IMG/VR virus record: IMGVR_UViG_3300008107_000114
Location: 1-52,914 of that record
From: a virus
Taxonomy: Duplodnaviria > Caudoviricetes
DNA length: 52,914 nt
Direction: 5' to 3' (one strand)
A model generated the notes under the pieces. The model was not told where the DNA came from. It searched no databases and saw only the letters and a list, made by a program, of their open reading frames with translations. Below, piece by piece: positions 3,663 to 48,739 of the stretch; position 1 is the stretch's first letter; every line of letters starts with the position of its first letter. The translations under genes were made by a program, and so were the position numbers.

Positions 3663-3912
3663 CGTTGAATACGTAAACCTAGCACCGACTCCAATGAGAG
3701 GTGTGGTTACCCTATTCAGAAAAATCAAAACGTATGAGGTAAAGTTCTTCGACACTTACCTGATAATCTACATCAATTCAAAACCCATTAAGATATTTTC
3801 AGAAGGGTGGAATACTAGGGCCGATCAAGAACTCTACATTGATCCGAAGACTCAAGCAATTTATCACGACTCAATAATAAAATATCACCGAGATGAACAC
3901 AGTAGTATATGA
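3604..3912 (+). CDS. Hypothetical protein (likely start MIKPISL at 3604)
   Basis: Internal ATG of track ORF 3517..3912; bridges helicase and polymerase. Confidence 0.55.
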   Translation: MIKPISLIKLLTYLIGQRYNVEYVNLAPTPMRGVVTLFRKIKTYEVKFFDTYLIIYINSKPIKIFSEGWNTRADQELYIDPKTQAIYHDSIIKYHRDEHSSI

Positions 3913-21900: not shown

Positions 21901-24900
21901 CGCTTGATATACCAAATGGATCTGACTCTGCAATTGCTCTGCTTTGTTTGTAGAGTTCTTTGATACGGTCAAGTTCTACAGCCAAATCACGGATTTTCTG
22001 CTTGGCTTTGTCTGGAATATTCAATCCTTTCTTTTCATTGCGTCTAAACATTCCTTCTGCACTGGACAAGTAAGTATCTTTGGTCAACTGTCTAAAAAGC
22101 TGCAACATTCTACCGACATCTGTACCAGCTTTCAGTATTCTGCTGTACAGTTCACCAATCATTTTAGGATCTTTACCGGTTTGCTTAGCTGCGATCAAGT
22201 CTTGAATTGCTTTGGCCAAAGGAACATCACCATCCTCAATTGCATCAAACAATGTCTGAAGTATCACAGGATACTCATTTGGATCCATGTTCTCAATCTC
22301 ATCGATAAGTTCTTTCTGAGACCGAACCACACGCATTGCTTCCTCTTCGCTCTCCATGACATCAGCCTCGTCTTTGAACATGCCTTTGCCCTGCTGCTGT
22401 TTAGCGATATTGGCTCTTTGTTTCAACGAGAAATAATCCTGAACATCACTTGGTTCAAAGCCACTGCGCATCAGTGCAGCGTAGAGTTCGGAATCAGTAA
22501 TCCCTTCGAACTCAGGATTACCTTTAATTTCTTTAATGAACTCAGAGATATCATCAAAGATATCCGTAGATTTTCTTTGCTTCAAATCGTTTACTCTAGC
22601 TTCACCGAGCATTGCGTCATACATCTTACGCATGGGCTCACTGATTTCCATTTCAACAGGAGTGCCTTTTATTCCACCATATACTTTTATCAGCCAGCGT
22701 TTGAAATCTTCAAACATCTTGGTTAATGCACCGGTAGGAGCTTTGCCATCATAGAGATATTTTTCAAAGCCTCTTGCAAATGCTTCTGAAGTTTCTCTTG
22801 ACCAGTCTGAATGCCCAACTGAATCCATGAACATCTGTCTTTCGGTAGCTGTCATATAAGATTCCCAAACGTGTGCTAGCTCGTGCATCGCAGTGGTCAC
22901 GTTTGGATTGGTCAACGCAAAGATGATGTGTTTACCTTGGTCTGTCTTAACTGTAGCACCGTGAGCACCGCCTTCCTCTCCTTGAAACAAAGCCATACCC
23001 TCTGCAACTTTACCGAAACTTTCATCCGTCAGTTTTATAGTATTGAAGAAATTACTAGGTATATATTCACTGGTGGTGTTAGCGAGTGCAGCTTTTTCTA
23101 GAAACATTGGATCTAATTCGCCCACTTCTAAAGCTTGACCTCCATTTATCACAGATTCACCTTGAGAATTAAAATAAACAGGAAACTGCTCAGTACTCAA
23201 GTAAATTTTAGTTTTAGGGTGTAATGCAGCTAGCGGTTTTTCAAGTCTAATTGTACCAATCTCAAAATTAAATTTAGAAGAAAGTTTTTGAACAATGCTA
23301 GGTAATGTCTTATTATAAAATGTGTTTATACCCACCGCCATATCAGCTTCTATTGCACCAACTACTGGTCCAACTGCGTGACCATTGGCCAAGACTATTT
23401 CCCTTACACCATAATCAGCGGCAACTTTCATAGCGTGTTTCAATGCAAGTTCTGCAAACTGATTAGATTCTGTAACAGGAGTTGTTTTTTTAAACTTAGT
23501 AGTGACTTCTCCTAACTCAGTTTCACGCTCAATGTATCTACTTATTTGTTCATCTGAATAACCGTTTTCAATAAGTGCAGCTTTTATTTTTTCAATATCA
23601 CCATTTGCTTTACTCTTAGCTTTATTTCCATCTTGAATAATACTTGGTTTTACATCTGCATACTTTTCTTTTAAAGGATTCAAAACACTCTTTCTGAACT
23701 CTTGAATTTTATCAGACTGAATTTCTTGAACATACAATACTCTTTTTCCATCTGGAGCAATGACAATCTGTGTTCTAAGATGCATCATTACCTCAGAAGG
23801 AACCGATAGAAAATGTTTACTGTTATAATAATCTTTACTCAATGAGTCACGAGTTTTCTTAAGTTCACTCAACTGATTTTCAAGTTGATTTATTTCTTGG
23901 GCAACGAGGCTGCTAGGTTTTTTGCCGTTGAAACTCTTTTCTATTTCAGAAAGTTTTAAAATGATATCTACTATTTTATTATCGTAATCCTTGAGAAGCT
24001 TATTAGATGAAAAAGGAAGTGTTATCAAGTGCTCTTTATACGTACCTTTTACACCTCCGGGGAACATTGCCGTGAATTGTCCAAACTCTTCTAATTGAGT
24101 TGTGCGGTCCATCTCGTCAATTAAATCCGCATAAATTTTAACTAAAGATTTTAAGTGTTGTTTATTTTTATCACTCAGGTCACGTGTGTTAAAGTTCTTC
24201 AGATCATCAAGTGCTTTTTTAAATGCAGTAAATTCCTTACGGCCAATGTACTTTTCGTATAATTCAATGCTTTCATCTTGAACTTCATTTAAACTAATGA
24301 ATTGAACTGTTCCATCACTTCTTCTTATTGCTATAGGTTTTTCAATTGGATCAGATTCAACAGCGTTTCCGGTACGCCCTGCGGCTGCCTCGGTAAAGCC
24401 AAGTAATACAACATCGCTAACTGTTCTTTTCTGAGCTGCAGATTCTGGGTCATAAACAACGAAGCCGTGAATATTTGAGGCCCAGTCCAAGAGATCGCGA
24501 GAGCTTATAAAATCCTTGCCTTTGTTACTCTCAATAAAGCCATCTATGTCTAACCAATCTAACTCTACAGCTTTAGCTCCATTTTTCAATAGTAATGGCT
24601 TTAGTTCAGCCAATGCAATTCTATCTTTACTGCCGATTTGTTCAATGACTTTTGTTGCAGCATAAGCAGTGTTGGAATAAAAAGATGTTCCTATATTTTT
24701 TTCAACTATTTGGCGAATCTTTATTTTATCTCTTAGGGCTTTCTGCTCTTCTGTAGTAAGTTGTTTAAGATTGTCTACAAAATTAGACGCTGTAGAACCA
24801 GTGAACAAATCAGGATTGTTTTCATACCGACTGTAAATTTCATCAAACCTTTCCTGAGAAACTAAACCTTTATCAACCAACTCTGCCTGAAGTTCCTGCT

Positions 24901-27900
24901 TGGTAAAATCACTTATTTTTTTGTAGGGGTCATAAATACCATTGGCAAAGTTTTCAATGCCCGGGAACATCTGATAAAACAAATTGCGTGCTTCTGCATC
25001 AGTCGTCTCAGAAATATAAGACTCTGGTTGTTTTGAAGCTTCAAAGGATTCTACTTTTTCTTGTAAGTCAACAGAAAGCATCACTGGGTCAGGAAACGTG
25101 AATCCTTCATTCTCTAACTGCATCAACTCATCAAGACTGAACAGAGTGCCGGTACTACCATCGTCAAAAGTAAATTCTTCCTGATCAAATACTTTTTGAA
25201 GAAACTCCATGGCTGTTTTAAACTCGGGAGATTTTACTGAGTCAATAAGTTCATTAAATTCTTCTTCAGTCACTGTTCCAAATTCTTTAGAGGTTACATC
25301 ATTTATCAATTGTAATTCTACGAGGCTATCGAAATATTCATACGAATCTTTACCCTGAGCTCTTAGAGCGTCTAACACTTCATCTATACCGTCAACAAAT
25401 GTTTTCAAATCTTGAAAGCTTTGTTCTGTAAAATTCATAGGTGCTGTAGCAGTACCTGATTCAGTTTTACCTGAAGTGTCTTCGGTGATTGGCTCTGTTC
25501 CAACAGCAACTAACTCATCACTATTTAACCCTGCAAATTTACTTGTGGTTACAAAGGCGTTATGAATACTCTTGAGTCTAGCCTTTCCCTTTGGACCGTA
25601 AGCATCGAGGTAATTGTTATAAATTAACTCGAGTGCTTTGCTATCTGCCTCAGTTAAATCGTATTTATTCGAAAACGTTTCGATTGCCGATGCAACCGAT
25701 TTTGGCTCATTACTTAGAAATAGAACTTTAGAAATATCTTTGAATACGCTAGTATAAGTACCAAACTGAAATATATTTTTATCTGCATAAAACTCTACAA
25801 CATCATTTATTAATTTTTCAGTATTGTCATCTATTACACCTGCAGATTTAAGCTCTGACACTTTAGCCCTAACTGCGGTTGGAGTTGCAAATTTTGTAGC
25901 TTCTGGTAACGTAAGTTCATTTTCCATGAACTGAACAGATTGTCTCAGAGATTTTTGAACTTGAGGCAATATACTTTTTTTAAATACACTATCGTAAGTA
26001 AACGGATCTTCTGTTACTTCGGTATACTTCGCTACGTTTATTAGTATTTCTCCGGGAGATGTTGAAGACTTTCCATTCCCTGTGTACAGGTGATTCGGTG
26101 AAAACGAAACCTGAGGCAAACTTACATCATCAACTACACGAATATTTATCAGACCGATATCCGGATAATTTTCATAGATTTTTTGATTATCCTCAATTGG
26201 TATTACAGATGAAATATTGATTATTCTATTGCTTACAGTATACGTAGTCCTATTAGCAATATCACTTAAGCTTTTCTTACCAAAATAAAAAGTTCTTTTT
26301 CCAAATGTAGGTTTCTTAGGAAAGGGACTCTCTTCATCCAGTCTCGAAGCCTCTAATCCAGAGGTAAAATTAAAGATTTCCTTGAGCGTAGAAAAGAAGT
26401 TAACTTTTCCTTCGTAAACTACTTTTCCTGTAGACAAATCAAACCGCTCTTTTGCTCCAGTATCGGCAATCTTAAAAGTAGGGTCAAACGCAATTGCTTC
26501 ACCTTGCTCATTGAAAACAACACCAGTCATCAAAGCTATTTTCTCTGGGGTGAACTTTTTTTCCTTCAGCTGCATGGCTTTCACCATGTTCGGATAAATC
26601 TCTTCGGGAACCAATGTGGCCGGAAGCTGATACAACGGAACTAGTTCAGGAGACATTTTGAGCCATTCTTGAAACTGTTGTTCAGTTCTTTTGAGCATCT
26701 CTATGCGAGTGTCCATGAACTGCTGCAGAGTAATACCTGCACGAGTAGCTGCAGATTCAAAATGCCTCATAGATACATCGGCAACGAATCGCTTCTTTCT
26801 AAGATTTTGTTTCCACTGAAATGGTTTTTTAATTGATGATGTGAAACCCCAAACCTCAGCACCTTTCTTCAACAGTTCCTTTCTGTATTTTTCACGTGTG
26901 GCATCGTTCTTACGAATCAACTCAACTGCTTCGTTGTACTTATTCATATCAACCATGCCCTCAGCTTTGGCTTTAGCTGCTGCTTCAACTTGAGCTGGGT
27001 CTGTAGTAGAAGCAACTGGTTCACCAGTGTTCTCCATGAATTCCTGTGCGGTGATTTCACCATTTAGGAAACGTGCTGCATCAATCTGCTCATCTTTGAT
27101 AAACGCTCCTTCTTCCTGAGTATCCTGAAGAATCTGAGCTACCTCTCTGCGCCTTTGGTTTTCTTTTACCAACTCCGCTGCTTGTTTCTTGTAATCAGCC
27201 TTGCGGTTTTTAGTCGTGGTAGTTGCCATTGGAGTCTGGCGAACAAACTTATCAGTGGCACTGAAAGTGTTGGAGCCAGTGTATTTATTAGCAGTAAAGT
27301 TGTTGAAGTCTTTTCTGAGTTTCTGAAAGTTTTCAAAACCAACTTTATCATTACCGAAAATTTCAGCAGCTTTAGCTCGGCTGTTTTGTAACAGGTTTAT
27401 GATGAAGTTGTCAATGGCATCTTCTTTTGACATTCTTCCATCAGATACCATCTGACCAAATACGTCATTGAAGGTGCTGTTTCTGGCCACAGCTTCACGA
27501 ACTTTATCGGTGACTGCATCTTTGTTTCGCTCACGGATTGGCTGACCAGTGGTCATGTCGGTATCCTCAGTGGTAAACAAAGTATTGTCAAAGTCTCTAA
27601 ACAAAGGAGCCATGTAGTCTGCAACCTTGGCTGCCTTTTTTCTAGCCAAGTCTGTGATTACTGCTTTGCCGTTCATGAAGAATGAAGTCAAGTTTATCTT
27701 CATCTTTGAACCCATGTTTCTGCTGATTTCTGAAGCCGTATCTTTTACATCGGTGTCCGAAACCTTAACTTCTTCTGCTACTCCAGTGAAGAGACCGGTT
27801 CTAGCTTGGCCATCTGCGTCAAACTTTGGGTTGTAACGAGCCTTTGCACTGGCCTCAACTTTATCAATGCGTTCTTTTTTACGACGCGAAGTTTCAGTTT

Positions 27901-30900
27901 GGTTTTGGTATGATACTTTATTGTTGTCTTTACCTGTAGCTCTTTCATTGTCAGCTTGTGACTTTCGTCTAGCTTCGAGGTTTTTAATTGCTATGTTCTC
28001 AATTTTTTCCCTAGAGACAATGCCGTGTTCTTTGGACTGACCTTCAATAAACTCACGAGCTTTTTCGTTTACAGGAACAAACTCTTCTGTAGTACTGGTC
28101 AAACCCTTTGCTTCTAGTTGTCCAGTTTCTGAGTTGTAGCGATATATAACTTTGTTGTCGAGTACTCCATTTACACCAGCAACATAGAACTCTTCTCCCA
28201 TGTTACCAGTTCTCTTTTCTACTTGAACGCCTTCGGATCCGGCTCCAGAACTTGCAGCACTACTGGTGGTTGTCTTTTGGTCTGATTCCACAGGCCCTGA
28301 AGACATCACCATTGGTTGGTCAAGTGGAATTGCAGTAGCATTTCCTCTGCCGTCTATAGCTGCAACTGTAGCTGCAGCACCTTCATATTCTTCATTGCCC
28401 CCTCCATTTCTTGCGTTTTTAATTGTCGAGTCCAACAAATCAAGTATTTCTCGATCGGTTTCAGACGCATTGTCTCCATAGGTAGACTCCAGATAGTTAG
28501 CAAACTCTGTTCGTGATTTAACTAAAACCTCAAGATTACTCAAGTTCATACTAGAAAACACCATCGAAGTGAATGCAATCGAACGCAATGTAAATAACTG
28601 CTCGTCTTCGGTTTTACCATATGCATTTTCTACAGCTTCTGTTATATCAAAGCCGTTTTGTTTAAAGTTAGTCCAAACATTCGCAAATGTTTCTTCTGTG
28701 AAAGAACCAGCTGCTCCGGAAACTGTTCTACCAAGTACAGTAAACATCTTACCGATGATATTATTTGGTACAAATCGACCCAACTCCAACACACCTGTTA
28801 CCTTATCGTATGCCTGAGTACCTAGTTTTTCAGCAACACCTGAAGTACCGTCTTCTCCTGCTAATTCATAACTGAGAAAATCTATACCGTAAACTGTAGC
28901 TGCTTTTTCAAATAACTGAAAAGCACCTAAGCCTGTTCTACCGTATCGAGAGGCCATGTATGTGCGAGTAGCCAATGCTGCTTCAGATGTGAATAATTTA
29001 CTTATGGCTCCAACCGAAACTTTACGAGTTAAAGCAAGTTGCAAACCTATTCCAATTGAACCAATGATACCCTGTGAAATCATTTGATCTTCTTGAACTT
29101 CTTTTATGCGATCAAGAGCCTCGGGGTTTACATACAAACCACTTTCCTGCAGTACTTGAACTGCCGTTGTAAATTCTTCAGCAGGTGTCATGTATTTATC
29201 CCCAGTAAAAACACCGGCTACATTGGCAACACCCTTGCTCACTTCAGCAACAAAGTTGGATCCTACGCCAGTTCCGTCAATTTTAGTAAGGTCGGCATTG
29301 GTGTAAATAATTTTATTAATCGCTTTAAGTTGAGCTTTCTTTTCAATGATTTTATTGTATAGGTTAGCACTATAGATATATGCAGCTCTATCATCATCCG
29401 TTACTTCACGAATGTCACCTTCACGCTGTCTTCTAGCCAATACACGGAAATTCTTATCTACGGCTTCTTTATATTTTTCGTCCAACCCCTCTCGATTATA
29501 AATAACTCGCATGGCTGGATTATTTTCAAAACCCTTGAGTTTTTTTTCTAGAGCCTCTACCTGTTCGTAAAGAATGTTTCGTTTTTCTTTAAGAATTACC
29601 AAATCAGTTTTCTTTTCGCCCTGCATAGTTTGAACGAAAACCTTTTGCGCGTTTTCCTGAGCCTTGCCTTCAAGTCTATTTCCAGATGGGTCAAAAAACT
29701 CCTGCTGAGGAATGGCGTTGAATCCGAAGAACCCACTATCACGTTTAATCTGCTCTATCTGAGCCTTTAGCAAATTAACCTTTTTAAGTTGATCTGGACC
29801 CAGTTGCTTTTGCTGTTTGCCGTTAGCTTTTGGAGCAGTCGCATATATTTCACGAATCTGATCGTATAAACCAGAGATTTTTCTTTCATCATCAGATAAC
29901 TCAGACAATGCCATAGCTTCACGATTTTCGTCATACCTAGAACGCATTGCACCCTTGGCATCTTTGTAATAACCAAGCTGCTTTCTTTTATTCTCATACG
30001 AAGTAATACCCATGGATCTTTCGTACTGGAGTTTAAAATCGTTTAGAATTTCGTCAATTTCATCTTCACGTACTCCCTGTTTAGAAAGCGACTCTATGAG
30101 AGTATTTCTGTTTAAAGCTTGGTATCCTTTGCCGGCAGTGTATGGTACATCAATGTTAATCTCGTTACCCAAATCATACTCATACAAAATCCTACCCAAG
30201 TCTTCTTCGGATATATTTGAAATTGAACCGGCATTTGGATTTTCATCATAAATGGTTCCGGATTTTCCAAGGAAGTCTCTTTTAACAACATCCGAACCTT
30301 TTGCGATTCGCATCTTACGATAATCCTCAGAACGAGCCCAGTCAGCATTAACTGAACTGTCTAAAACAACTGGCTTCAATAGGTCATTGACTGTACTGTA
30401 GCCAATCTCTTTTAGTTGCTTACCGTATTTTCTCTGGTACGCATCTCTATTTAGAGGGTCTTTAATGTAACTGTAAAACTTAGCGGGATCTTCAAATGGT
30501 TGGCCATATGCATCTACTGCAATGCCATTGGACTTCAGTTTATCAAATTGGTTTTGCGCTTCATATTTACGTTGTGCAATGTTGTATGTGGCTTGTACTG
30601 GATCGGGAGCAAACATATCAAATTCTGCTCTGTAACCAAGTTGGCCGGGAGTAGGTGTCTGTCTAGTAAAGACAGGATCGTAGATTGTCTTCCCATAGTA
30701 ATCGGTAAACTGGAGTTTTTCATATTCTGATAACCCACCCCCAATTTTTGTATCAAAATCTTTCTCGCTTATAATGTTAAAATACTTGTTCAGTACTGAT
30801 TTCTTTTCGTTGTAGAACTGAGACCGTTGTGCTGGGTCAGCTAGAACAGCTTCGAGTTCTTCTTTATTCTTGATGAAAGTATTGCCGAAAAATATAACGT

Positions 30901-31246
30901 CACCGTAGTCTTGTTTAGCTGCAACAAATAAAGTCTCTGCGTCTAGAGATGTTCCTGACAAATTCTTAAGTTCCTGTTCTCTAGCTACAGCCTGCTCCTG
31001 AGTAATCTCAGGCTGCTGTTCATTCATCGCTTTTACTATGGGAACAGGTTCTTTTTTCTGACCTGAGATAGCTTTTTCCAACCCAGCTTTAAAAGAAGGT
31101 GTTGTTGTTTTTTTAGGCGCAATAGGACCTACCCTAGTCTCTAAAAAACTTTCTGGTTGATCACTAGTAGTAGAAGTATTGACTACCGGCTTAGTATCAA
31201 TCTTAGCACCCCCTATTCTAGGAGTAAATTTTTTCTCTTCAGGCAT
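18992..31246 (-). CDS. 4084-aa giant virion/ejection (large polyvalent) protein
   Basis: Uninterrupted ORF after the cargo genes; HExxH zincin motif TTAMHELAHVW (~aa 2788) with downstream SEAFARGFE; LPD23-like segment (~aa 1556); YVQEIQSD domain (~aa 2508). Confidence 0.85.
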   Translation of the reverse strand: MPEEKKFTPRIGGAKIDTKPVVNTSTTSDQPESFLETRVGPIAPKKTTTPSFKAGLEKAISGQKKEPVPIVKAMNEQQPEITQEQAVAREQELKNLSGTSLDAETLFVAAKQDYGDVIFFGNTFIKNKEELEAVLADPAQRSQFYNEKKSVLNKYFNIISEKDFDTKIGGGLSEYEKLQFTDYYGKTIYDPVFTRQTPTPGQLGYRAEFDMFAPDPVQATYNIAQRKYEAQNQFDKLKSNGIAVDAYGQPFEDPAKFYSYIKDPLNRDAYQRKYGKQLKEIGYSTVNDLLKPVVLDSSVNADWARSEDYRKMRIAKGSDVVKRDFLGKSGTIYDENPNAGSISNISEEDLGRILYEYDLGNEINIDVPYTAGKGYQALNRNTLIESLSKQGVREDEIDEILNDFKLQYERSMGITSYENKRKQLGYYKDAKGAMRSRYDENREAMALSELSDDERKISGLYDQIREIYATAPKANGKQQKQLGPDQLKKVNLLKAQIEQIKRDSGFFGFNAIPQQEFFDPSGNRLEGKAQENAQKVFVQTMQGEKKTDLVILKEKRNILYEQVEALEKKLKGFENNPAMRVIYNREGLDEKYKEAVDKNFRVLARRQREGDIREVTDDDRAAYIYSANLYNKIIEKKAQLKAINKIIYTNADLTKIDGTGVGSNFVAEVSKGVANVAGVFTGDKYMTPAEEFTTAVQVLQESGLYVNPEALDRIKEVQEDQMISQGIIGSIGIGLQLALTRKVSVGAISKLFTSEAALATRTYMASRYGRTGLGAFQLFEKAATVYGIDFLSYELAGEDGTSGVAEKLGTQAYDKVTGVLELGRFVPNNIIGKMFTVLGRTVSGAAGSFTEETFANVWTNFKQNGFDITEAVENAYGKTEDEQLFTLRSIAFTSMVFSSMNLSNLEVLVKSRTEFANYLESTYGDNASETDREILDLLDSTIKNARNGGGNEEYEGAAATVAAIDGRGNATAIPLDQPMVMSSGPVESDQKTTTSSAASSGAGSEGVQVEKRTGNMGEEFYVAGVNGVLDNKVIYRYNSETGQLEAKGLTSTTEEFVPVNEKAREFIEGQSKEHGIVSREKIENIAIKNLEARRKSQADNERATGKDNNKVSYQNQTETSRRKKERIDKVEASAKARYNPKFDADGQARTGLFTGVAEEVKVSDTDVKDTASEISRNMGSKMKINLTSFFMNGKAVITDLARKKAAKVADYMAPLFRDFDNTLFTTEDTDMTTGQPIRERNKDAVTDKVREAVARNSTFNDVFGQMVSDGRMSKEDAIDNFIINLLQNSRAKAAEIFGNDKVGFENFQKLRKDFNNFTANKYTGSNTFSATDKFVRQTPMATTTTKNRKADYKKQAAELVKENQRRREVAQILQDTQEEGAFIKDEQIDAARFLNGEITAQEFMENTGEPVASTTDPAQVEAAAKAKAEGMVDMNKYNEAVELIRKNDATREKYRKELLKKGAEVWGFTSSIKKPFQWKQNLRKKRFVADVSMRHFESAATRAGITLQQFMDTRIEMLKRTEQQFQEWLKMSPELVPLYQLPATLVPEEIYPNMVKAMQLKEKKFTPEKIALMTGVVFNEQGEAIAFDPTFKIADTGAKERFDLSTGKVVYEGKVNFFSTLKEIFNFTSGLEASRLDEESPFPKKPTFGKRTFYFGKKSLSDIANRTTYTVSNRIINISSVIPIEDNQKIYENYPDIGLINIRVVDDVSLPQVSFSPNHLYTGNGKSSTSPGEILINVAKYTEVTEDPFTYDSVFKKSILPQVQKSLRQSVQFMENELTLPEATKFATPTAVRAKVSELKSAGVIDDNTEKLINDVVEFYADKNIFQFGTYTSVFKDISKVLFLSNEPKSVASAIETFSNKYDLTEADSKALELIYNNYLDAYGPKGKARLKSIHNAFVTTSKFAGLNSDELVAVGTEPITEDTSGKTESGTATAPMNFTEQSFQDLKTFVDGIDEVLDALRAQGKDSYEYFDSLVELQLINDVTSKEFGTVTEEEFNELIDSVKSPEFKTAMEFLQKVFDQEEFTFDDGSTGTLFSLDELMQLENEGFTFPDPVMLSVDLQEKVESFEASKQPESYISETTDAEARNLFYQMFPGIENFANGIYDPYKKISDFTKQELQAELVDKGLVSQERFDEIYSRYENNPDLFTGSTASNFVDNLKQLTTEEQKALRDKIKIRQIVEKNIGTSFYSNTAYAATKVIEQIGSKDRIALAELKPLLLKNGAKAVELDWLDIDGFIESNKGKDFISSRDLLDWASNIHGFVVYDPESAAQKRTVSDVVLLGFTEAAAGRTGNAVESDPIEKPIAIRRSDGTVQFISLNEVQDESIELYEKYIGRKEFTAFKKALDDLKNFNTRDLSDKNKQHLKSLVKIYADLIDEMDRTTQLEEFGQFTAMFPGGVKGTYKEHLITLPFSSNKLLKDYDNKIVDIILKLSEIEKSFNGKKPSSLVAQEINQLENQLSELKKTRDSLSKDYYNSKHFLSVPSEVMMHLRTQIVIAPDGKRVLYVQEIQSDKIQEFRKSVLNPLKEKYADVKPSIIQDGNKAKSKANGDIEKIKAALIENGYSDEQISRYIERETELGEVTTKFKKTTPVTESNQFAELALKHAMKVAADYGVREIVLANGHAVGPVVGAIEADMAVGINTFYNKTLPSIVQKLSSKFNFEIGTIRLEKPLAALHPKTKIYLSTEQFPVYFNSQGESVINGGQALEVGELDPMFLEKAALANTTSEYIPSNFFNTIKLTDESFGKVAEGMALFQGEEGGAHGATVKTDQGKHIIFALTNPNVTTAMHELAHVWESYMTATERQMFMDSVGHSDWSRETSEAFARGFEKYLYDGKAPTGALTKMFEDFKRWLIKVYGGIKGTPVEMEISEPMRKMYDAMLGEARVNDLKQRKSTDIFDDISEFIKEIKGNPEFEGITDSELYAALMRSGFEPSDVQDYFSLKQRANIAKQQQGKGMFKDEADVMESEEEAMRVVRSQKELIDEIENMDPNEYPVILQTLFDAIEDGDVPLAKAIQDLIAAKQTGKDPKMIGELYSRILKAGTDVGRMLQLFRQLTKDTYLSSAEGMFRRNEKKGLNIPDKAKQKIRDLAVELDRIKELYKQSRAIAESDPFGISSADPSKTNLQYHTGLYEQLQEATKRFIDARQPYEGDDSLTDMYRTFVKGGLMTPGSISVNTLSNVTKFITGLIVDPLKSAISLTAFKLGISEKQFTKTSLKDWWSGVRYGMPMGIKRAYKILKDGTMTQAYQNPDSYVQGYSFYKSFAKFWGLKLDQMRVAAGYSDMSSEELAEKHGFKLGMQGEIPKKQQAIAALQGFFGAVPDVIFRVMGATDAVFRDFAYFSSLSEQFKMTKEHDRYQQAIRNASGPEKAKLKAEYDAVRKAYIEVNTDFQNTEANKEAMRYVYNNDNYTTDIIKQVQGITRTGANENSFMAKISRLIGTSIVPFTRIPSNYALELTEFFLPEYALIKLASNGYKSYTRSRGLQDASSAEYAESLSERRDNARSMDRVLARALVGTGVQFIALQMVKAGAVSGAPDDENEDKGSSMTYSYTLERPYSINLTLVKERFKEMFDPNYKSKRNDLWDKENDLIIDYRALGIFGAALYMQYKENKLMDQSELKYQNRGDFEKITNDFTLNLFGNYESAGKYILDQTFVRGLLSVATAVSSEDENKLPAFLADITLTLSAGMVPNSLAWMDKWRRQYMVDYDAKEAPSFKAFGMKVENTAATLYWHKVATKMAERWPIGDPSQYVDLPFVEIDQEYLPIKYDAFGKPVLQTPEGATMGSFLYNTFDVFKATRAVAGYETPDWEALVYLATKKGGAWHSLPSLPPRKVDTPSGAYKFAPDEYNNLLQYSSMITRNMVQQFIIDSKVYQELIDVNSAVNKDQATGLPRMGIDNMKILLGYEVLGDLLSTLNQAGKEIADIATYTFVDAERRKMYEEDPERYIDMVVTEALSPMGDFVKQIYGNQEAGGDNYASRQQGAQYFTIDKNLISDPKRFKNFATGAMQLFKEMNDDPKTAIITGRNAVSSKLQSEGGVDLGEGIEYVPFDAPTKKSAAVDTMVKQRDAAQKLAKPNIDLGEGVEYVPFD

Positions 31247-34177: not shown

Positions 34178-37100
34178 TTATTTGTTATACAATCTTGAGT
34201 TCGATCTGTATTTAACTACGTAATCTACCAACTTCTGAAACAAGTTGGGAGCAAAGGTCAATTTAACTTTCAAGTATCTACCCCACAATCTAGAAGTATC
34301 TCCAGAATTGATACCGGTTATGGTGGAATCATTTTTAACAGGAGCATAGTAAAAATCCTCTAGTTCTTCAAACTCAGCACTTGTCAAAAAAGATACATGG
34401 TCACGTGTACCAAAATCAATTCTCTCAGGTGTAGTATGAGTAACTACCTGAACAGCTTCGAAAGTTTTACTGAGGTTGGGATCAATATTGACTACGCCTT
34501 CAATGTGTCCATTATACTGGGCATCATAAAAAGTATTGTAAGCACCTGCATTGTGAACGTATATTTTATTCTGTTCGTTTGGCTTGGTTGTGTAAACTGT
34601 GTTTCCACGAGTAGCCATAATATTTGGCCAAGCTGATTGGAAACAAATAAACCCATTCTTCACCTCGTCATACACCAAATTAAATATTTTGTAGTACTGA
34701 GGATGAGTATCGGGAGTTAGTTTTTCCCAGTTATTTGCCCAAGTTGCACCGAAGTATGGACGTGTGTTTCCAGTATCGGGGTTACTGTTTTTCTTTCTGT
34801 ATATAAAAGGAACTCCTGATAAATGTCTATCTGCAGTTTCAAATTCACTGTAGTAATTAAATGACGTTCCATCCCCTTGGTGGCTGACTTTCACAAGACT
34901 TCCAGAAGCATACTGAACATATGCACTGTAGCTTGTGTTGGTCCAAGTTTGAAATTCTTGAATCGAAGGGTCAACAGCCTTGAACGTGAACATTGCTTCG
35001 TAGAACCTTTGGTTATATCCTGCAGTAACGCCTTCACCAGAGATCGCTCTAAGTGAATCGGCATGCCATGTTGTATTGTTAATCAAGAATGACATCAAGC
35101 CCTTGTCAGAAAGTACTCGGGTTCCGTCTCCACCAAAGCGAACGATCTTCTTGGTTTCAGAATTGTACCAGTACAAGTTTTCATCACCAGTAAAAGTTTT
35201 ACCTTTTACCACGGCAGTTTTATTGGTAGCTCCAAAGCTGCTCAGCTTCTGACCTTTGTTTGTCAGAACCCCACCTGAACCGAGTACAATCTCTGTACCT
35301 TGATCACTCACTAACATTTGAGAATCGTTAATGTAGTGGCGTGTAAAAGCATTTGGCTGAAGAGTGTACAGGTTGCCGTTGATGGTTTCTAGCTCGATGA
35401 TTTCTCCATCATTGGTATCCAAATCAACAACGTCAATTGGTTTGAAGATTCTATAGTTATCCTTTTCGGAGCCAGTGCTTTTGATCTGAGACCAGCGGAT
35501 TGAGGCAGGTCGTTTTCCATCCCAACGATTATCTGCATCATAACCATTTTCAGTAAACAAGTTGTCTATGACGTTATACTGAGAATCGTAATTATTCTGA
35601 TTGTCTACTTCTGGCCATTGTTCTAACCAATAAAGCAAACCTGTTCCCCAAGCACCTTGTTCAAGTTCGGCATAGGTAACAACGTTTGATGATAACTGAG
35701 CATTTCGAGGTGCGCCAAATGAGTCTCTAATGTAAGCGTTACCAGCACGCTTATAACCAGACTCATTTAATCCGGTAATGGTTGTTTCCATATACTGAGG
35801 GAAAACATATCCGGGTCCAGCATGCTCCTTGTTATGTTCTATTGTGTAGAACATTTGAGTATTCGAAACGTTTTGAGAGTAAAAAGAATAGCCTAATCCG
35901 AATCCATAGTTCAAATCATTATGCGTACTCATTCTCGCCTTGAGTGTGGTCTTCTGAGTAAAGACATCTCCACCGAATACCGATACGTTGCTCTGAACCC
36001 CACGCTCATTTCCATTCAAGATGTAAATGTGATTGGTAGTTTCATAAACAGTCTGTTGTTTATCACTTGGATACTTTGCAGCATTTCCTTTATCTCTAAA
36101 AACCTGAGCATAAACTAAACCTTCTTTTGCATACGTACCAGATCCACTTGGATATAAACCTACTGCTCCGGGAAAAGTTGGTTCTATAGCAGTACCCAAC
36201 TTAAAAACCGTGCAGCTTTTCATATTACTGTAAAAAGGACTTGCAAAAGATACACCTTCAGGTGGAACACTGATTCCGTTTTTAACTTTATCAGCTCCAC
36301 CCCAAGCAGCAATCTCTCCGGTACGAAAAAGTCTGGCATCTAAAATGCTAATATTTGTATAGGAAAGTAAGGTTGGATAAAAATACCCAGTGTACTCTTG
36401 ATATACAGATTCAAAATCTCCTGTACTAAAACCCTGAAGAGTAAACTTATCACGAGGTACAGGAACACTTAAAACTTTTAATACGTCACCTGCTGTATAC
36501 TCATACTGCGTCTGATTGAAGTATATATCAGGAGAATGGAAATAACCGTAAATCGATGCACCGTTCTTACCAAGCTTTATATCATTCTGGTACGAGGTTG
36601 TTCTAAAGTTTAAACTGTGATCTCTTCTGCAATAGTTACTAGGGTAACTAGAAAAAGTATTCACAGGCGTTCTTACGACATCCTTGTGGTACGGTATGAT
36701 ATGATTTTCGCCAACTGTATTATCATCAAGAACACCGCCAATTAGAATACCGGTAGCTAAAACTTCAGGGATTCTGTCGGCCCGAACAATCCTGTAGGCT
36801 TTTATCAACTTGTGCAAAGGCTCATTGTTTACCTCGTAGCTCAAGTCAATATTTCCAAATTTAGGATAAAATACGTTTACCACCGTAGAGTCACTATTGG
36901 TCATGTTCGTAGTGGTGATGTTATTTGCGCTTCTTCTGTTTGGAATAGTTACGTTGGTTGCAGTTGTATCAAAACGAATATCATCAAGATAATATGGAGA
37001 AGACCATTTTCCGGTTTCTTTCCACTGAACCTGAATCCCAAAACGATAGGTATCATTCATCATGTACCCTGTATAATTTAATACGTTCTGAGGATCTTGG

Positions 37101-38890
37101 TATTCTCCAAATCGGTAAGCCGGATACGGTCTATTGCAATCATCCGGTCCAAAATAGTTGCTATAGAGTACAGAAGGAATTGTCCTTACTTCTAAAGTAT
37201 GTGTTATTTGCTGAGCCCACGCAGTAAGATCCTCATCAATCAACTCGTTGACGTTAGCCAAAAACAAGCGATTTGAGTTAATTCTAATGCTCTTGACACT
37301 AGTTACTTTGGCTGTGAGGGCCAGAAGTTCAGGAATGGATAATGGGAAATTATCCTGACCGTTGTTACTGTGAATTACATCTAGAGATGTTTCGTTGTTC
37401 AAACGATATCTCTGAACCATGGTAGCGGTAAACGTCTCGCCTTCATACTCAATCGCAACTAATTCAAAGTAAGTAAACTCACCGGGAGGAATATTGTTAA
37501 CACGCAGCTTTATCGCCTTGTTGGTTAGCGTGCCCGGCTGATCACCTTTGACTTCAGATGGAGTAATGGTATTTGCATTGAATACATTGATGGGTCCAGT
37601 TGGATACAGATAATCTGTTCCAATAAAGTCATCTGTTACAAAACGACCAGTGTAACGTTTGTTACCACATATAACTGATCCCCCGCCTTCAATGCTGGCG
37701 ATGTACTGGATTGTGGCCGCTGGAGTATCTACAAATAATGTTGTTTCCTTGTCGACTTTTGCGATATCAATTTCTCCACCGTTCGAAGTCAGTACTCCAT
37801 CTTGAATGTATGGATAAGGAACGCTTAATGCCCTTGGTTTATTAAAGCCATCGGTCCAGTAAATATTTACATCCTGTGTGCGTCTTTCAACTTGTGATTG
37901 GATCTGGTAGTCAACGTTAAAGTTAAGCTGCTTGGATCTAAGCAAGCGAGTATAGGTATAAGCTTCAGTAGCTGGATTAAACTGAACAACACCTATTTCA
38001 CAGAGACTGTTGTACGGTGTATAATAGGTTGAGGTAAGATAATTGCCAGTTGTAGAAAACACTATTGTGTCATTACCAACGCTCTCCATTCCTATAATTT
38101 TAAACTTAGGAGAAAGTGTAAGAAAACTTACGTACTCGGAAAGTTGAATAATGGAGTCAATTATGTTTCCAGTTTTTAAGATTTCAAAATCAGTAAAGGT
38201 TGCATTTGTTACATCAAAGTATGCTGTGCCTCCGGTGAGATACGTAAGACTAGCATATGAAAACCCAGCCGCTAAACCATTCAACATAGACTGTACTTGA
38301 GTTGCAAGGCTAGTCATAGGGGAAAGGTCAATGGTCTGAGTCCCAGTCCCAGCTGTAGTAAAATCGATCTTGTTGATGAGAGTAGACTCAGTGTACAGTT
38401 CTATTGTTGTGGTATTAATTACCTTTACATAATACGCCCCTCCGCTCACCAAAGGCGAAGGAGGTGTTCCACCAATATTTAAGTATCCTACAACTTGGCT
38501 GTTCGATAAACCATGAGGAGAAGCAAAAGATATTTGATCAGTGGTAGTATTTACACTAGAGATAGGTATAGAAGAACCAACGTAACTTCCAGTAAAACTA
38601 CTTGGACCCAGTACAACTCCAGAACTATTTATAACAGAAACGGAGCCGCTGAAACTATAGGGATAATCAGCTCTCAAGTAAATACGCCAAGTACTTACAC
38701 TTTCAGTTGGATCAGGAATCGTAACTTTTAATGCATTACCCAGAACCGGAGAAACGCCAGTCATATTAGCACCCGCATCGTCACGGTGTCTAATATTCTG
38801 GGCATCTATGTAATTACCGCCAGATACCAACTGTAAGTCGGTATCCTTGTCCATAAAACCATTTTGAAGTAATCTTACTATCTGAGACAT
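34178..38890 (-). CDS. Tail nozzle/muzzle (P22 gp10/crAss stabilization protein-like)
   Basis: GFMDKDTD...YIDAQNIR N-terminus, IYWTDGFNKPR, FGGDVFT, SRLWGRYLKVKL C-terminus; follows the ring genes. Confidence 0.85.
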   Translation of the reverse strand: MSQIVRLLQNGFMDKDTDLQLVSGGNYIDAQNIRHRDDAGANMTGVSPVLGNALKVTIPDPTESVSTWRIYLRADYPYSFSGSVSVINSSGVVLGPSSFTGSYVGSSIPISSVNTTTDQISFASPHGLSNSQVVGYLNIGGTPPSPLVSGGAYYVKVINTTTIELYTESTLINKIDFTTAGTGTQTIDLSPMTSLATQVQSMLNGLAAGFSYASLTYLTGGTAYFDVTNATFTDFEILKTGNIIDSIIQLSEYVSFLTLSPKFKIIGMESVGNDTIVFSTTGNYLTSTYYTPYNSLCEIGVVQFNPATEAYTYTRLLRSKQLNFNVDYQIQSQVERRTQDVNIYWTDGFNKPRALSVPYPYIQDGVLTSNGGEIDIAKVDKETTLFVDTPAATIQYIASIEGGGSVICGNKRYTGRFVTDDFIGTDYLYPTGPINVFNANTITPSEVKGDQPGTLTNKAIKLRVNNIPPGEFTYFELVAIEYEGETFTATMVQRYRLNNETSLDVIHSNNGQDNFPLSIPELLALTAKVTSVKSIRINSNRLFLANVNELIDEDLTAWAQQITHTLEVRTIPSVLYSNYFGPDDCNRPYPAYRFGEYQDPQNVLNYTGYMMNDTYRFGIQVQWKETGKWSSPYYLDDIRFDTTATNVTIPNRRSANNITTTNMTNSDSTVVNVFYPKFGNIDLSYEVNNEPLHKLIKAYRIVRADRIPEVLATGILIGGVLDDNTVGENHIIPYHKDVVRTPVNTFSSYPSNYCRRDHSLNFRTTSYQNDIKLGKNGASIYGYFHSPDIYFNQTQYEYTAGDVLKVLSVPVPRDKFTLQGFSTGDFESVYQEYTGYFYPTLLSYTNISILDARLFRTGEIAAWGGADKVKNGISVPPEGVSFASPFYSNMKSCTVFKLGTAIEPTFPGAVGLYPSGSGTYAKEGLVYAQVFRDKGNAAKYPSDKQQTVYETTNHIYILNGNERGVQSNVSVFGGDVFTQKTTLKARMSTHNDLNYGFGLGYSFYSQNVSNTQMFYTIEHNKEHAGPGYVFPQYMETTITGLNESGYKRAGNAYIRDSFGAPRNAQLSSNVVTYAELEQGAWGTGLLYWLEQWPEVDNQNNYDSQYNVIDNLFTENGYDADNRWDGKRPASIRWSQIKSTGSEKDNYRIFKPIDVVDLDTNDGEIIELETINGNLYTLQPNAFTRHYINDSQMLVSDQGTEIVLGSGGVLTNKGQKLSSFGATNKTAVVKGKTFTGDENLYWYNSETKKIVRFGGDGTRVLSDKGLMSFLINNTTWHADSLRAISGEGVTAGYNQRFYEAMFTFKAVDPSIQEFQTWTNTSYSAYVQYASGSLVKVSHQGDGTSFNYYSEFETADRHLSGVPFIYRKKNSNPDTGNTRPYFGATWANNWEKLTPDTHPQYYKIFNLVYDEVKNGFICFQSAWPNIMATRGNTVYTTKPNEQNKIYVHNAGAYNTFYDAQYNGHIEGVVNIDPNLSKTFEAVQVVTHTTPERIDFGTRDHVSFLTSAEFEELEDFYYAPVKNDSTITGINSGDTSRLWGRYLKVKLTFAPNLFQKLVDYVVKYRSNSRLYNK

Positions 38891-45706: not shown

Positions 45707-47935
45707 TTATTCCATGGGAACTTCTGCAGGTTGTCCAGTCATTTCACCTTCTGCTGCTACAGGTGCTTCTGCCATGGATTCTACAGGTGCTTCCCCTGTT
45801 GAAGGCGGTGGTGAATTTTTAGCCATGTCACCAACAAACTTCAACTCGGAACGATAGTTATTTCCTTCTTGAGCAACTTGAGCTTGTTGCTGCTGCATTG
45901 CCATCTGGGCTTCCATTTGTGCAGCTTGCATAATACGAGCTTGTTCTTCTTGCTGTTTACGCTCACGATCTTTCTTGTCCATTGAGTACTCAAGTTCTTT
46001 GAGAAGCTCAGTGTAAGTCTTGGCTGTTTCGATGCGCAAGTAATCACGCATGTCAATCATTTGAGCTTGCATAGCCGCTTGAGCAATTGCAAGAAGACGT
46101 TCTCTAGATTGTTCATCAACAAAGTCTTTTACTTTGATATAAACGCCAAAGTCTTCAAACTTGAAGTCTTCGGTTATTTCCAAGAACTCGATTCCTCTGT
46201 CATCAAGAAGGCCAAGTGTATCGGTTTCCAAAGTCAACAACGAAACCTTGTATTGGTTCAGTGCATACTGAAGGTCGCGTTCAATGAACTGAATGAAGCC
46301 TTGATATAAATAAGAAGTACCTAGGTTTGATTGAGCAATGGAACCGGCTTGAGTTTTTGCACCGAGATATCCTTGCTGCTGACCCATTGCGATTTTAGGA
46401 ACGTTAACAATCTCTTCCATGATACGTTCTTCTTCTCTGCGAAGCGTAATCATCATGTTAACGTTAGGGTCCAGAGTCATATCAACTACTTCAACGACCT
46501 TGTTGTAATCAGCGTTGTTGAAATCTTCACCAGTCATGTTGCCATCGGTGATGTGAATCCCCATCCTTTCGAAATCGTTTAGGATTTCTTGAGAAGTTGC
46601 AGAGCCAAGTTTATGTTTGTTCAAAACGAAAACCTTGCCTTTGGCCCGGTCCGTCATTTTGGTGATCTCGTAAGTAAGATAGTCAATTCTATCTTGGTGT
46701 TTGTGAAGGCGAGATGCAATCGAACGAGTTTCGCCCATCACCATGTTTGGAAGGAATACTGAAATTGGCAACTGAACCTCACGTGGATCATCGGACCTGC
46801 GAACAATGTTCGTTGTCTCACCAAAGTCTACCACATATTTGTTGGCAATCAGAGTTCCTTTATAAATAGTCTTCACCCAGTACTTTGAGTTTTGACGAGT
46901 TCTCATCTTTGAGAAGTGCTCGTTTCCGTACTGGTCTTTTACTTGTTCGTAACGTAGTTCTTTGTAGCCTACCCAGTAACCTGTAACACAGGCCATCTTT
47001 GGAACGCCAGAGTAATTATACCACCAACGCAGTTTGTTGGAAGTGATGTACTCTTCACCGAGCATCTTGTCCAGTGTCTGAGTATTTACTGTTTTGATTT
47101 CATCGATTTCTTGGGGTGTCAGAGACTCCAAGAATTCTGGACGTGACAAAATTTCACCGGGAGTAAGCCAATCAATTTTACCTACATAGTGAGCCCTAGT
47201 GTTAAAGTCATCATCCACCGAGTTGTCCCAAATCAAGTTGTAAGGCAGAATGATTTCTTTATACTGTCTTCCGTTCTTGATTGAGTTTTCAATTCCGCAA
47301 ACTCCACCAAGCAAAAGATACAAAAATCCTTGTTTGTATTTTTCAATGAAACGGTTCCTGTAAAGAATATCATTAGCCAAACGTTGAGCAATTACTTCTG
47401 CGTACTCTTTGTAATCGTACAGCATGAATCTCTCCAAGTCTTCTGGAGTTTCAAACTGTTCTGCTCCAGTTGGATTGAACTCAGTTCCCCCTTCACTCAT
47501 GTTCATGAAGATTTCCTCATACTTTAATTTAAGCATGCCAAGGGCCAACATCATGTTCTTCTTGGAAACTAGGGCCTCAGATGTACCTTTTACAGACGGC
47601 TCGATGTTTTCAATCATCTTGATAGCATTGCCTATCATGAAATCAATCATCGAAGTCAACTTCTGTCCATTAATCCAGACAGTTGGGAGATCACAGTTGT
47701 TTTCGTCTTTCGTCTTGTAGTAGTAATCTTTGTTTTCTTGTTTGCCAAGGTAGTAAGTGAACATGCGAAGCATTTCATCTACTGGCTTTTCATATGTTGC
47801 AGTGTTCTGATACCCCAACATATTCTGCTGTGTGTTGTACTTTTCAGCAACGTAGCGCAGCGAATCCCTATACCATTCTGGATCTTTTTGATTTTCTGGT
47901 ATAAATTGATTGGGTTGGTCTCTTAAAGCAATCAT
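45707..47935 (-). CDS. Portal protein
   Basis: 742 aa; PNQFIPENQKD..WY N-terminus, EEIVNVPKIAMGQ, C-terminal Q-rich barrel helix. Confidence 0.88.
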   Translation of the reverse strand: MIALRDQPNQFIPENQKDPEWYRDSLRYVAEKYNTQQNMLGYQNTATYEKPVDEMLRMFTYYLGKQENKDYYYKTKDENNCDLPTVWINGQKLTSMIDFMIGNAIKMIENIEPSVKGTSEALVSKKNMMLALGMLKLKYEEIFMNMSEGGTEFNPTGAEQFETPEDLERFMLYDYKEYAEVIAQRLANDILYRNRFIEKYKQGFLYLLLGGVCGIENSIKNGRQYKEIILPYNLIWDNSVDDDFNTRAHYVGKIDWLTPGEILSRPEFLESLTPQEIDEIKTVNTQTLDKMLGEEYITSNKLRWWYNYSGVPKMACVTGYWVGYKELRYEQVKDQYGNEHFSKMRTRQNSKYWVKTIYKGTLIANKYVVDFGETTNIVRRSDDPREVQLPISVFLPNMVMGETRSIASRLHKHQDRIDYLTYEITKMTDRAKGKVFVLNKHKLGSATSQEILNDFERMGIHITDGNMTGEDFNNADYNKVVEVVDMTLDPNVNMMITLRREEERIMEEIVNVPKIAMGQQQGYLGAKTQAGSIAQSNLGTSYLYQGFIQFIERDLQYALNQYKVSLLTLETDTLGLLDDRGIEFLEITEDFKFEDFGVYIKVKDFVDEQSRERLLAIAQAAMQAQMIDMRDYLRIETAKTYTELLKELEYSMDKKDRERKQQEEQARIMQAAQMEAQMAMQQQQAQVAQEGNNYRSELKFVGDMAKNSPPPSTGEAPVESMAEAPVAAEGEMTGQPAEVPME

Positions 47936-48024
47936 TGAATTTTTGCGAAATTTATATAAATTTATACAAATATAACTAAAGTTAAATAAGAATTCTCTTA
48001 TTTAAGATTAAGTACTGTAAAGTA

Positions 48025-48286
48025 ATATAATGATTTGCTTGGAACTGAGGATATGCGTGAGCTATCCCAAAAAGGGTGCTCACCAAAAAAGACTTGCTCG
48101 TAGACTGTCTTCAATGACTGATGTGGAACATGCAAGCCCATCAGCTTGGAATCAACTATCGAAGGTTGCACCCTCCGTCCGGTCCTGCGAATCATTCCTT
48201 AGTGCCATCGCTGTGCTGTGCCGGAATCCCATGGTAGCACACAACCCTATAACGCCACCGTCTTTTCACCGACCGTTAAAGGGGGG
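48025..48286 (-). ncRNA. Candidate structured non-coding RNA (~260 nt), family unknown
   Basis: TACATTTG promoter element at 48296-48289; six hairpins plus a long-range closing stem; G-U pairs favour the minus strand; no credible ORF. Confidence 0.6.
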
Positions 48287-48313
48287 TACAAATGTAAAGC
48301 TCTTTTTGAAAAA

Positions 48314-48739
48314 TCAAAACGGGCTCAACATATTTTTTGAAATTAAATACTCAAGGTCATAAAAAAGCAAATCCCAAGGATTGATGTTCAGACCAAACCC
48401 AAAGTCAATGGCAAAGGTCATGATGTTATCGCACCGATAGTATTCTGAAGTAAGTAAATCTTTGTTGCGGTATACAGTTTCCAAGCCACCTGACTTGCGA
48501 CTTATCTCTCCGGCCAGATCCTTCAGCGTCATGTTTCGCTTTTTGAGGATGTAGATTAGGTTCTTGACCAGTGTCTTAGAGAGGCTATTGATTTTAAGTT
48601 CCCTTTGGTCGTAGTAGTAGCTTTTCAGCAACTCTTGGATTCTCCGATCCTCTAGAAATTTTGGACCGCCTTCTTGTCGAATGTTGATAATTTCCTGCTC
48701 AATTTCGTCGATGGTGAGTTGTCTTTTTAAAATTCTCAT
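48314..48739 (-). CDS. Putative HTH (Cro/C1-like) transcriptional regulator
   Basis: NLIYILKKRNMTLKDLAGEIS...GLNINPWDLL pattern. Confidence 0.6.
   Translation of the reverse strand: MRILKRQLTIDEIEQEIINIRQEGGPKFLEDRRIQELLKSYYYDQRELKINSLSKTLVKNLIYILKKRNMTLKDLAGEISRKSGGLETVYRNKDLLTSEYYRCDNIMTFAIDFGFGLNINPWDLLFYDLEYLISKNMLSPF

Follow-up and report, generated by a model that had tools for sequence, protein, structure and literature searches.

The window analyzed in this work, a 52.9-kilobase (kb) uncultured virus record in IMG/VR taken at its full length of 52,914 nucleotides (nt), carries on its minus strand, in the gap ahead of the portal gene, a gene for a conserved structured RNA that is almost certainly real, as judged from the covariation among its relatives. 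The RNA of the window is a real orphan RNA which had already been partly catalogued, and its reading as a packaging RNA is unsupported. The best overall explanation, to which we give a probability of about 0.45, is a separate, trans-acting, knotted RNA that would display one word twice. According to this explanation, a non-coding RNA about 250-300 nt long would be encoded at positions 48283-48033 (minus strand) by a stand-alone gene that possesses a promoter-like box of its own. Its 5' domain of about 140 nt would adopt a compact fold, in which hairpins P1 to P4 are locked by three pseudoknots, and its 3' domain would contain hairpins P5, P7 and P6 followed by a single-stranded tail. The RNA would not lead the portal message but would act in trans. 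Its knotted core would provide a rigid platform or a body to which proteins bind, and both the loop of P7 and the 3' tail would offer the same lineage-specific word of 6-8 nt to one partner, which might be an RNA or DNA site complementary to the word or a protein able to read it. Complex RNA folds with several pseudoknots are rare, and their known roles are nearly all those of ribozymes, riboswitches or ribonucleoprotein cores.

The evidence for the RNA comes from the comparison of diverged homologues. A search with the portal protein returned nine related viral loci, seven of which contain the RNA, and a pattern made from two conserved blocks gave 15 viral and 31 metagenome stretches. Viral and metagenome contigs together provided 33 distinct sequences, of which L274 is a fortuitous match in coding DNA. 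All loci of clades A and B belong to one phage group, with portals 52-94% identical, and share the gene order YqaJ-type recombination module, regulator-like open reading frame (ORF), RNA and portal. As the nested structure obtained with RNAalifold on a MAFFT alignment was partly wrong, two diverged clades were used to work out the structure by hand. The 5' domain was then turned into a covariance model (R1), with which 35 matches were realigned, and pairs were counted on 30 distinct 5' domains. The conserved part and its 5' domain consist of the following elements (percentages are cells paired; P, hairpin; PK, pseudoknot).

48033 to 48283, minus strand: portion of the RNA gene that is structured and conserved in alignments, reaching from P1 as far as word 2 (about 251 nt)
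48144 to 48285, minus strand: 5' domain, P1 to P4 plus three pseudoknots; R1 142.9 bits, E-value 4e-36
48245 to 48283, minus strand: P1 (CCCUUUAAC / GUUAUAGGG) around the conserved internal loop GGUCGG ... ACGGUGGC; 9 pairs, 8 changing on both sides, 81.5%
48231 to 48258, minus strand: PK1, GUGG (48255-48258, P1 internal loop) with CCAU (48231-48234, P2 loop); 98.3%, both-side changes in 3/4 pairs
48213 to 48240, minus strand: P2 (GUGCU / AGCAC) with loop ACCAUGGGAUUCCGGCAC; 100%, both-side changes in 3/4
48178 to 48225, minus strand: PK2, UCCGG (48221-48225, P2 loop) with CCGGA (48178-48182); 96.2%, both-side changes in 5/5
48187 to 48211, minus strand: P3 (GCGAU / UUCGC) with conserved loop GGCACUAAGGAAUGA; 98.0%, both-side changes in 4/5
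48148 to 48198, minus strand: PK3, GGAAU (48194-48198, P3 loop) with AUUCC (48148-48152); 99.3%, both-side changes in 4/5
48160 to 48177, minus strand: P4 (CGGAGG / CCUUCG); 98.3%, both-side changes in 3/6

Over the 30 domains, 93.6% of the cells form standard pairs, against 74.6% in shuffles (0/500 as high) and 39-48% when the partners are slid, and 31 of the 41 pairs change on both sides. The nested helices are part of R1, so that their counts are biased towards the model; PK1, PK2 and PK3, with the percentages given above, were absent from the model that made the alignment. PK3, for instance, appears in relatives as GGACU/AGUCC, GGAUU/AAUCC and GACAU/AUGUC. Several letters of the core are unpaired and invariant (GGUCGG, UGGGA, GGCACnAAGGA and AGUUGA), and the core as a whole is conserved far more strongly than the 3' domain. 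The model is also specific: it gave 16 matches at E-values of 3e-18 or lower, and the best of 75 background loci, which are mostly chance matches from a looser DNA pattern, was a single match with an E-value of 0.46. The RNA is assigned to the minus strand because G-U pairs are frequent in P4, where two pairs are G-U in 19/30 and 24/30 sequences and would read C-A on the plus strand.

These results bear on an earlier description of the stretch made by a model without database searches (hereafter, the sequence-only reading). The conservation and covariation in related phages that it proposed to look for were found. Its six local stems coincide with hairpins that we derived independently: P1 (48245-54/48274-83), P2 (48212-17/48236-41) and P4 (48161-65/48171-75), which the covariation counts support, and P5 (48118-23/48139-44), P7 (48089-93/48107-11) and P6 (48057-62/48078-83), which recur in the one-by-one folds described below with stem letters that differ between lineages (by eye). 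The minus-strand G-U pairing that it noticed is borne out in P4. As an anatomy it was incomplete, however, since P3 and the three pseudoknots are missing from it, and its long-range stem (48187-96/48029-38) does not hold: this stem is intact in only 2 of 13 sequences (the window and L002), 71.9% of its cells are paired against 69.8% in shuffles, five of its nine pairs depart solely through unpaired cells, and it clashes with the covarying P3 and PK3.

The region contains no recognizable gene of another type. No reading frame is conserved across the gap, the longest ORFs of 32 homologues ranging from 25 to 83 amino acids (aa) in varying frames and strands, which answers the possibility of a conserved protein. 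ARAGORN found no transfer RNA (tRNA) or transfer-messenger RNA and no Rfam family reached its cut-off over the whole window, in agreement with the statement that the RNA is none of these, nor RNase P RNA, nor a known ribozyme. Since queries of cultured phages with the RNA region (one spurious 45-nt match only), with the portal protein (no match) and with an RF02932 member from another contig, L232 (no match), yield none, no cultured isolate carrying the RNA is at hand.

On the minus strand, the order is orf141, a 378-nt gap, the portal gene and then the remainder of a long structural operon, which runs on the same strand down to about position 6049 with the RNA at its head. The features that flank the RNA are listed below.

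48289 to 48296, minus strand: promoter-like -7 box TACATTTG, read from the sequence, ending 5 nt before P1
47984 to 48003, minus strand: A/U-rich hairpin AAAUAAGAGAAUUCUUAUUU, located after the RNA and before the promoter box of the portal gene, kept in the seven closest distinct sequences (by eye)
47967 to 47974, minus strand: promoter-like box of the portal gene itself, TATATTTG, read from the sequence and kept in relatives
45707 to 47935, minus strand: portal gene, 742 aa (phrog_6547, E-value 2.8e-53), a neighbor outside the RNA
48314 to 48739, minus strand: orf141, a small gene upstream of the RNA, regulator-like, kept beside the RNA in this phage group

The GC-rich character of the gap and the box at 48296-48289, both pointed out in the sequence-only reading, are borne out by the sequence and by the G+C profile, with values of 0.47-0.54 in the middle of the gap and 0.19-0.43 in the flanking DNA. 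In 17 of 32 homologues, a script located a TAnnTTTG box, which we take to be the Bacteroidota promoter consensus, no more than 45 nt upstream of P1, and four more (L007, L263, L278 and L280) have it by eye, beyond the extracted stretch. At the other end, the A/U-rich hairpin may be the end of the RNA.

The same reading had suggested that the RNA could be independent of the portal gene, which has its own box at 47974-47967. Comparison of loci makes this independence likely. In L010, whose portal is 63% identical, the RNA (R1 match of 77.5 bits) lies on the strand opposite to the portal, downstream of its own TATATTTG box and upstream of a regulator-like ORF; in the distant members L155 and L206, it lies between two genes of the other strand and converges on the next gene; and L008 and L009 keep the portal operon without an RNA match. 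These three observations argue for a stand-alone gene and not a leader. A cis-acting late-operon leader, by whose processive antitermination the RNA promoter would also serve the portal gene and the structural operon of 42 kb, is therefore highly unlikely, even though the RNA heads a long same-strand operon and no strong terminator is called between RNA and portal gene: besides the inverted and convergent loci and those without an RNA match, a promoter-like box of the portal gene itself is retained downstream of a conserved hairpin. An antitermination leader of the HK022 put or EAR kind would be expected in the transcribed, same-strand leader of the controlled operon in all members, whereas the RNA is inverted in L010 and convergent in L155 and L206, against the antitermination leader proposed in the sequence-only reading.

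The proposal of a packaging RNA fares worse. The phage phi29 packaging RNA (pRNA) is a phage-encoded structured RNA, and an analogue of it would form a ring at the portal vertex during DNA packaging. The RNA of the window is likewise phage-encoded and structured and adjoins the portal gene, and this position, seen in one phage group, is the sole support for such a role. Against it, the RNA matches no Rfam family at cut-off, pRNA included, showed no covarying pairing of the P5 loop with the word that would close a ring and has no constant link to packaging genes across its family, since relatives in other phages lie away from such genes; moreover, the portal gene of L008 and L009 has no RNA match beside it. 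We consider this role scarcely credible. An antitoxin mimic had also been put forward. Type III antitoxin RNAs (ToxI-like) are tandem arrays of short repeats next to a toxin gene, but Tandem Repeats Finder detected no array in 48025-48296, and the sole array, at 47948-47989, is A/T-rich promoter DNA.

At relaxed thresholds, the Rfam search gave four sub-threshold matches, none of them to pRNA. One of these is informative: the first 114 nt of the RNA (48170-48283) match RF02932 (Betaproteobacteria-1) with 32.8 bits, corresponding to an E-value of 2.3e-4 over 701 nt and of 4.1e-6 over the whole record. The gathering cut-off of this family, 49.4 bits, is not reached, so that the RNA is not formally a member; nonetheless, comparison of sequences and folds makes it very likely a relative. 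Both share the internal loop of the first hairpin (GGUCGG ... ACGG(Y)(R)GC), which reads GGuCGG ... ACggCAGC in RF02932, GGUCGG ... ACGGUGGC in the window (model positions 1-39) and ACGGCAGC / ACAGCAGC in clade B. They also share the UGGGA loop of P2, where the RF02932 letters CUGuGGGaaA have ACCAUGGGAU as counterpart in the window and ACUGUGGGAA in clade B. A pattern on these loop letters revealed further members in viral contigs and bacterial genomes. Of 15 such loci, eight hold RF02932 above its cut-off, on Burkholderiales-type contigs and two viral contigs, and seven do not. The two branches are bridged by L149, which passes the RF02932 cut-off with 94.3 bits and is also matched by R1 (E-value 1.9e-4). 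Bona fide RF02932 members keep PK1 (GCAG/CUGU) and have a covarying PK2 (GCAUU/AAUGC, GUGUC/GACAC, CAGGC/GCUUG and GAUU/AAUC), both by eye. The architecture of P1, PK1 (P1 loop with P2 loop), P2, PK2 (P2 loop with the strand after P3) and P3, which was counted for the window branch, is recognized by eye in members that pass the cut-off (L143, L149, L206, L219, L229, L230 and L245) and in others that do not (L140, L145, L148 and L155).

The RNA of the window is thus a diverged branch of a wider superfamily, found on phages with Bacteroidota-type promoter boxes. It resembles RF02932 in being carried by phage or mobile DNA, and differs from it in several respects. It belongs to a phage whose boxes are presumably of the Bacteroidota type, and not to Betaproteobacteria; the Rfam model is limited to two hairpins over 120 nt, while the RNA of the window combines four hairpins with three pseudoknots and continues into a 3' domain of about 110 nt; and the letters of the P3 loop and PK3 are GGAAU/AUUCC in the window and GGUGG/CCACC-like in RF02932. 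A catalogued two-hairpin orphan motif is in this way linked to a far larger fold, with three pseudoknots and a second domain, and the range of this fold is extended beyond proteobacterial prophages to uncultured phages whose promoters are of the Bacteroidota type. The earlier claim of an undescribed phage RNA accordingly stands as regards formal families, but not entirely, given the sub-threshold match of its first 114 nt and the pseudoknots shared with RF02932 members. Rfam types RF02932 as 'Gene; sRNA'. The family stems from a survey of 224 motifs, the main text of which does not name the Betaproteobacteria-1 motif (PMC5737381). A full-text literature search for 'Betaproteobacteria-1' returned unrelated papers only, and our literature searches found no paper on this RNA. 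A catalog of more than 8,000 candidate phage RNAs of up to 151 nt is described in PMC10690425, and the RNA of the window may be among them.

Across the wider superfamily, the neighboring genes encode ParB-like proteins, a helicase, an HNH nuclease, a Holliday-junction resolvase, a replication initiator, regulators, a methyltransferase and a transposase. No neighbor is constant, and no packaging gene was found among them outside the phage group of the window; because the neighbors differ in this way, no tie of the family to DNA packaging is apparent. R1 gave one match in 151 genomes of the phylum of L155, namely the starting genome itself, and RF02932 none in 14 well-known control genomes, which indicates that the RNA travels with phages and mobile DNA.

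Some superfamily contigs carry other RNAs or additional copies. The viral contig L140, which has a diverged family member, contains a type II hammerhead ribozyme at 1407-1475, plus strand (RF02276, 54.4 bits). Two RF02932 copies lie 3.7 kb apart on one Paraburkholderia contig (L219, 61-160 and 3795-3911, plus strand), scoring 77.5 bits for the first and 107.3 for the second. In L229 (4325-4409, 756-1040), the RF02932 RNA is preceded by a tRNA gene at a distance of about 300 nt, and the same contig has a seemingly out-of-place match to 5_ureB_sRNA (94.2 bits).

The second part of the proposed explanation concerns the 3' domain. Column-wise counts of P5 and P6a on the MAFFT alignment failed, as insertions and deletions shifted the register, and sequences were instead folded one by one. 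The domain contains the following elements.

48118 to 48144, minus strand: P5 (CUGAUG / CAUCAG) with the 15-nt loop GGCUUGCAUGUUCCA, from one-by-one folds
48089 to 48111, minus strand: P7 (AAGAC / GUCUU), whose loop carries word 1, GAGCAAGU, at 48092-48099, from one-by-one folds
48057 to 48084, minus strand: P6 (GGUGAGC / GCUCAC) with an inner hairpin at 48065-48077, from one-by-one folds
48033 to 48040, minus strand: word 2, AAGCAAAU, the copy of word 1 in the 3' tail, from sequence comparison

The same three hairpins, with differing stem letters, appear in 30 sequences folded singly. P5, for example, is CCGAUG/CAUCGG, CUAGUG/CACUAG, UCGUAG/CUACGG, UUGUAG/CUACAA or CUGAGU/ACUCAG depending on the lineage; P6 keeps GUGA/UCAC in 22 of 23 aligned sequences, around an inner hairpin of variable length and sequence. 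In 21 of the 30 folds, the word forms a hexaloop and is found again in the tail, and in 12 of 13 lineages both copies correspond in their variable letters. The variants include GCAA, GAAA, ACAA, AGAA, UCAA and AGCAU, with UUCAA facing UUCAG and AACAAG facing AGCAA. The spacing between copies ranges from 59 to 86 nt across lineages (59 nt in the window, where the intervening sequence is unrelated); a coding or repeat-unit reading of this stretch was discarded, as its lengths are not in threes and it holds no conserved ORF. Proteobacterial relatives show the same layout, CUCCG-word ... CACCA-word, by eye.

We tentatively propose that one word is displayed two-fold to one external partner. A two-copy word that changes in step is a concrete experimental handle and, should its partner be identified, would lead to the function of an entire family of RNAs carried by phages. 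Short sequences that are presented or met twice at unpaired places of a structured RNA have precedents. In Staphylococcus, RNAIII and RsaE repeat one seed in several loops, with a known partner and a seed that is constant within the genus; in the immunity RNAs P4 CI and P1 c4, the complementary target sequence exists in two copies, the repeat being in the target and not in the RNA. The word of the window RNA differs from these in that it varies between phage lineages, and no homology to them exists. Within the RNA, at the portal start and in the flanking phage DNA, no partner tracking the changes of the word was detected. Two candidate partners within the phage were rejected: the P5 loop, a partial fit that fails in the L267 group and in L258, and the portal start codon region, which fits in the window and L004 and not in L005, L015, L024 or clade B. 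The word is not enriched within the window.

Several results weigh against the explanation that we prefer. The minus strand does not fold better than shuffled sequences (z = -0.79; 43 of 200 shuffles fold as well), an outcome that the sequence-only reading had listed as counting against the RNA, and the plus strand gives z = -2.18. In the 5' domain, P1a (GUC/GAC) is weak, with 84.4% of cells paired and a both-side change in one of three pairs. A terminator scan downstream of the RNA gave no site, and the hairpin at 47984-48003 was not called. L008 and L009, of the same phage group, have no R1 match even with filters off (best 0.7 bits), from which it follows that the RNA can be lost. As to the kinship, PK2 in RF02932 members was read by eye. 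As to the word, the window's own fold places word 1 in a 13-nt loop, partly paired and with no clean hexaloop; the count of 12 in 13 was made by eye and, as the lineages are related, represents fewer than 12 independent events; pairing of at least five base pairs between the P5 loop and the word is found in only 6 of 14 sequences, without tracking the changes, and in such a count pairing between two molecules, of the kind that closes a phi29-type ring, looks the same as pairing within one; and the word-complementary sites in flanking phage DNA are many short chance matches, none at a conserved place.

Other explanations of the two words and of the conserved core have to be considered. The words could act as DNA, being two direct-repeat operators for an orf141-type regulator that lie inside the RNA gene and co-evolve with the protein. 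By eye, orf141 resembles a helix-turn-helix-like regulator, and it matched no family in Pfam or PHROG. Homologues were found by tblastn in nine loci, that of L006 also matching the L010 ORF (E-value 1e-8). Such strongly diverged homologues (22-89% identity), adjoining the RNA in all loci of the phage group, could drive the co-change, and word 2 precedes the promoter box of the portal gene by about 60 nt. Nevertheless, word 1 is in the loop of a hairpin with a covarying stem, which is a feature of RNA, and proteobacterial relatives show the two-copy word without an orf141-type neighbor, so that the chance of this explanation appears very small.

Self-processing would account for more of the data. 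Here, a putative catalytic or guiding 5' core would cut or join at both words, freeing or rearranging the P6 hairpin. Compact pseudoknotted folds with invariant unpaired letters are typical of ribozymes and aptamers, and the core is a fold of this kind with many such letters; two sites held identical fit one recognition module acting twice, and the layout is kept in proteobacterial relatives. However, the RNA matches none of the ribozyme families in Rfam, it has no internal guide that changes along with the words, and the spacing of the words is variable, all of which makes self-processing rather unlikely. With still somewhat less probability, one may envisage a putative new class of RNA device, present in phages of several bacterial phyla, whose three-pseudoknot core would act on the two words of its own 3' domain, either by self-cleavage or ligation that frees the hairpin between the words or as a two-state switch between the copies. 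If true, it would represent a new ribozyme or switch architecture and not a passive small RNA.

Alternatively, the conserved core could be a sponge that binds a small molecule or a host protein, such as a defense or RNA-binding factor, the words being incidental. The stand-alone gene, carried on phages and mobile elements with no constant neighbor, fits a host-directed accessory function, and the core is more strongly conserved than the 3' domain. But the co-change of the words is left unexplained and no known aptamer family matches, and we regard a sponge as improbable.

With respect to large RNAs of phages, GOLLD and ROOL are ornate RNAs often found in prophages (PMC5737381; PMC12286853), with the same combination of complex conserved folds, phage or prophage carriage and stand-alone genes. 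They are two to three times longer than the RNA of the window, which has no sequence or model match to them, and they form RNA-only multimers.

Further observations concern the surroundings of the RNA. In L008 and L009, the gap of 430 nt ahead of the portal (positions 2560-3000) is occupied by another GC-rich sequence, perhaps a copy that has decayed or been replaced; by eye, putative remnants may be present on its opposite strand. In L013, L021 and L022, the RNA tail is followed, before the portal promoter, by three direct repeats, each about 14 nt long (TCTAGAnATATAAG-like), which look like protein binding sites or iterons, and L282 has a long GA-rich simple sequence about 150 nt after the RNA. 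Within the structural operon of the window, a 4084-aa ORF (18992-31246, minus strand) has no PHROG family at E-values of 1e-5 or lower, and a 1570-aa ORF (34178-38890) matches families of virion structural proteins. At the far end of the record, the plus strand encodes a primase-helicase (phrog_239) and a DNA polymerase (phrog_1252) at 1935-5539.
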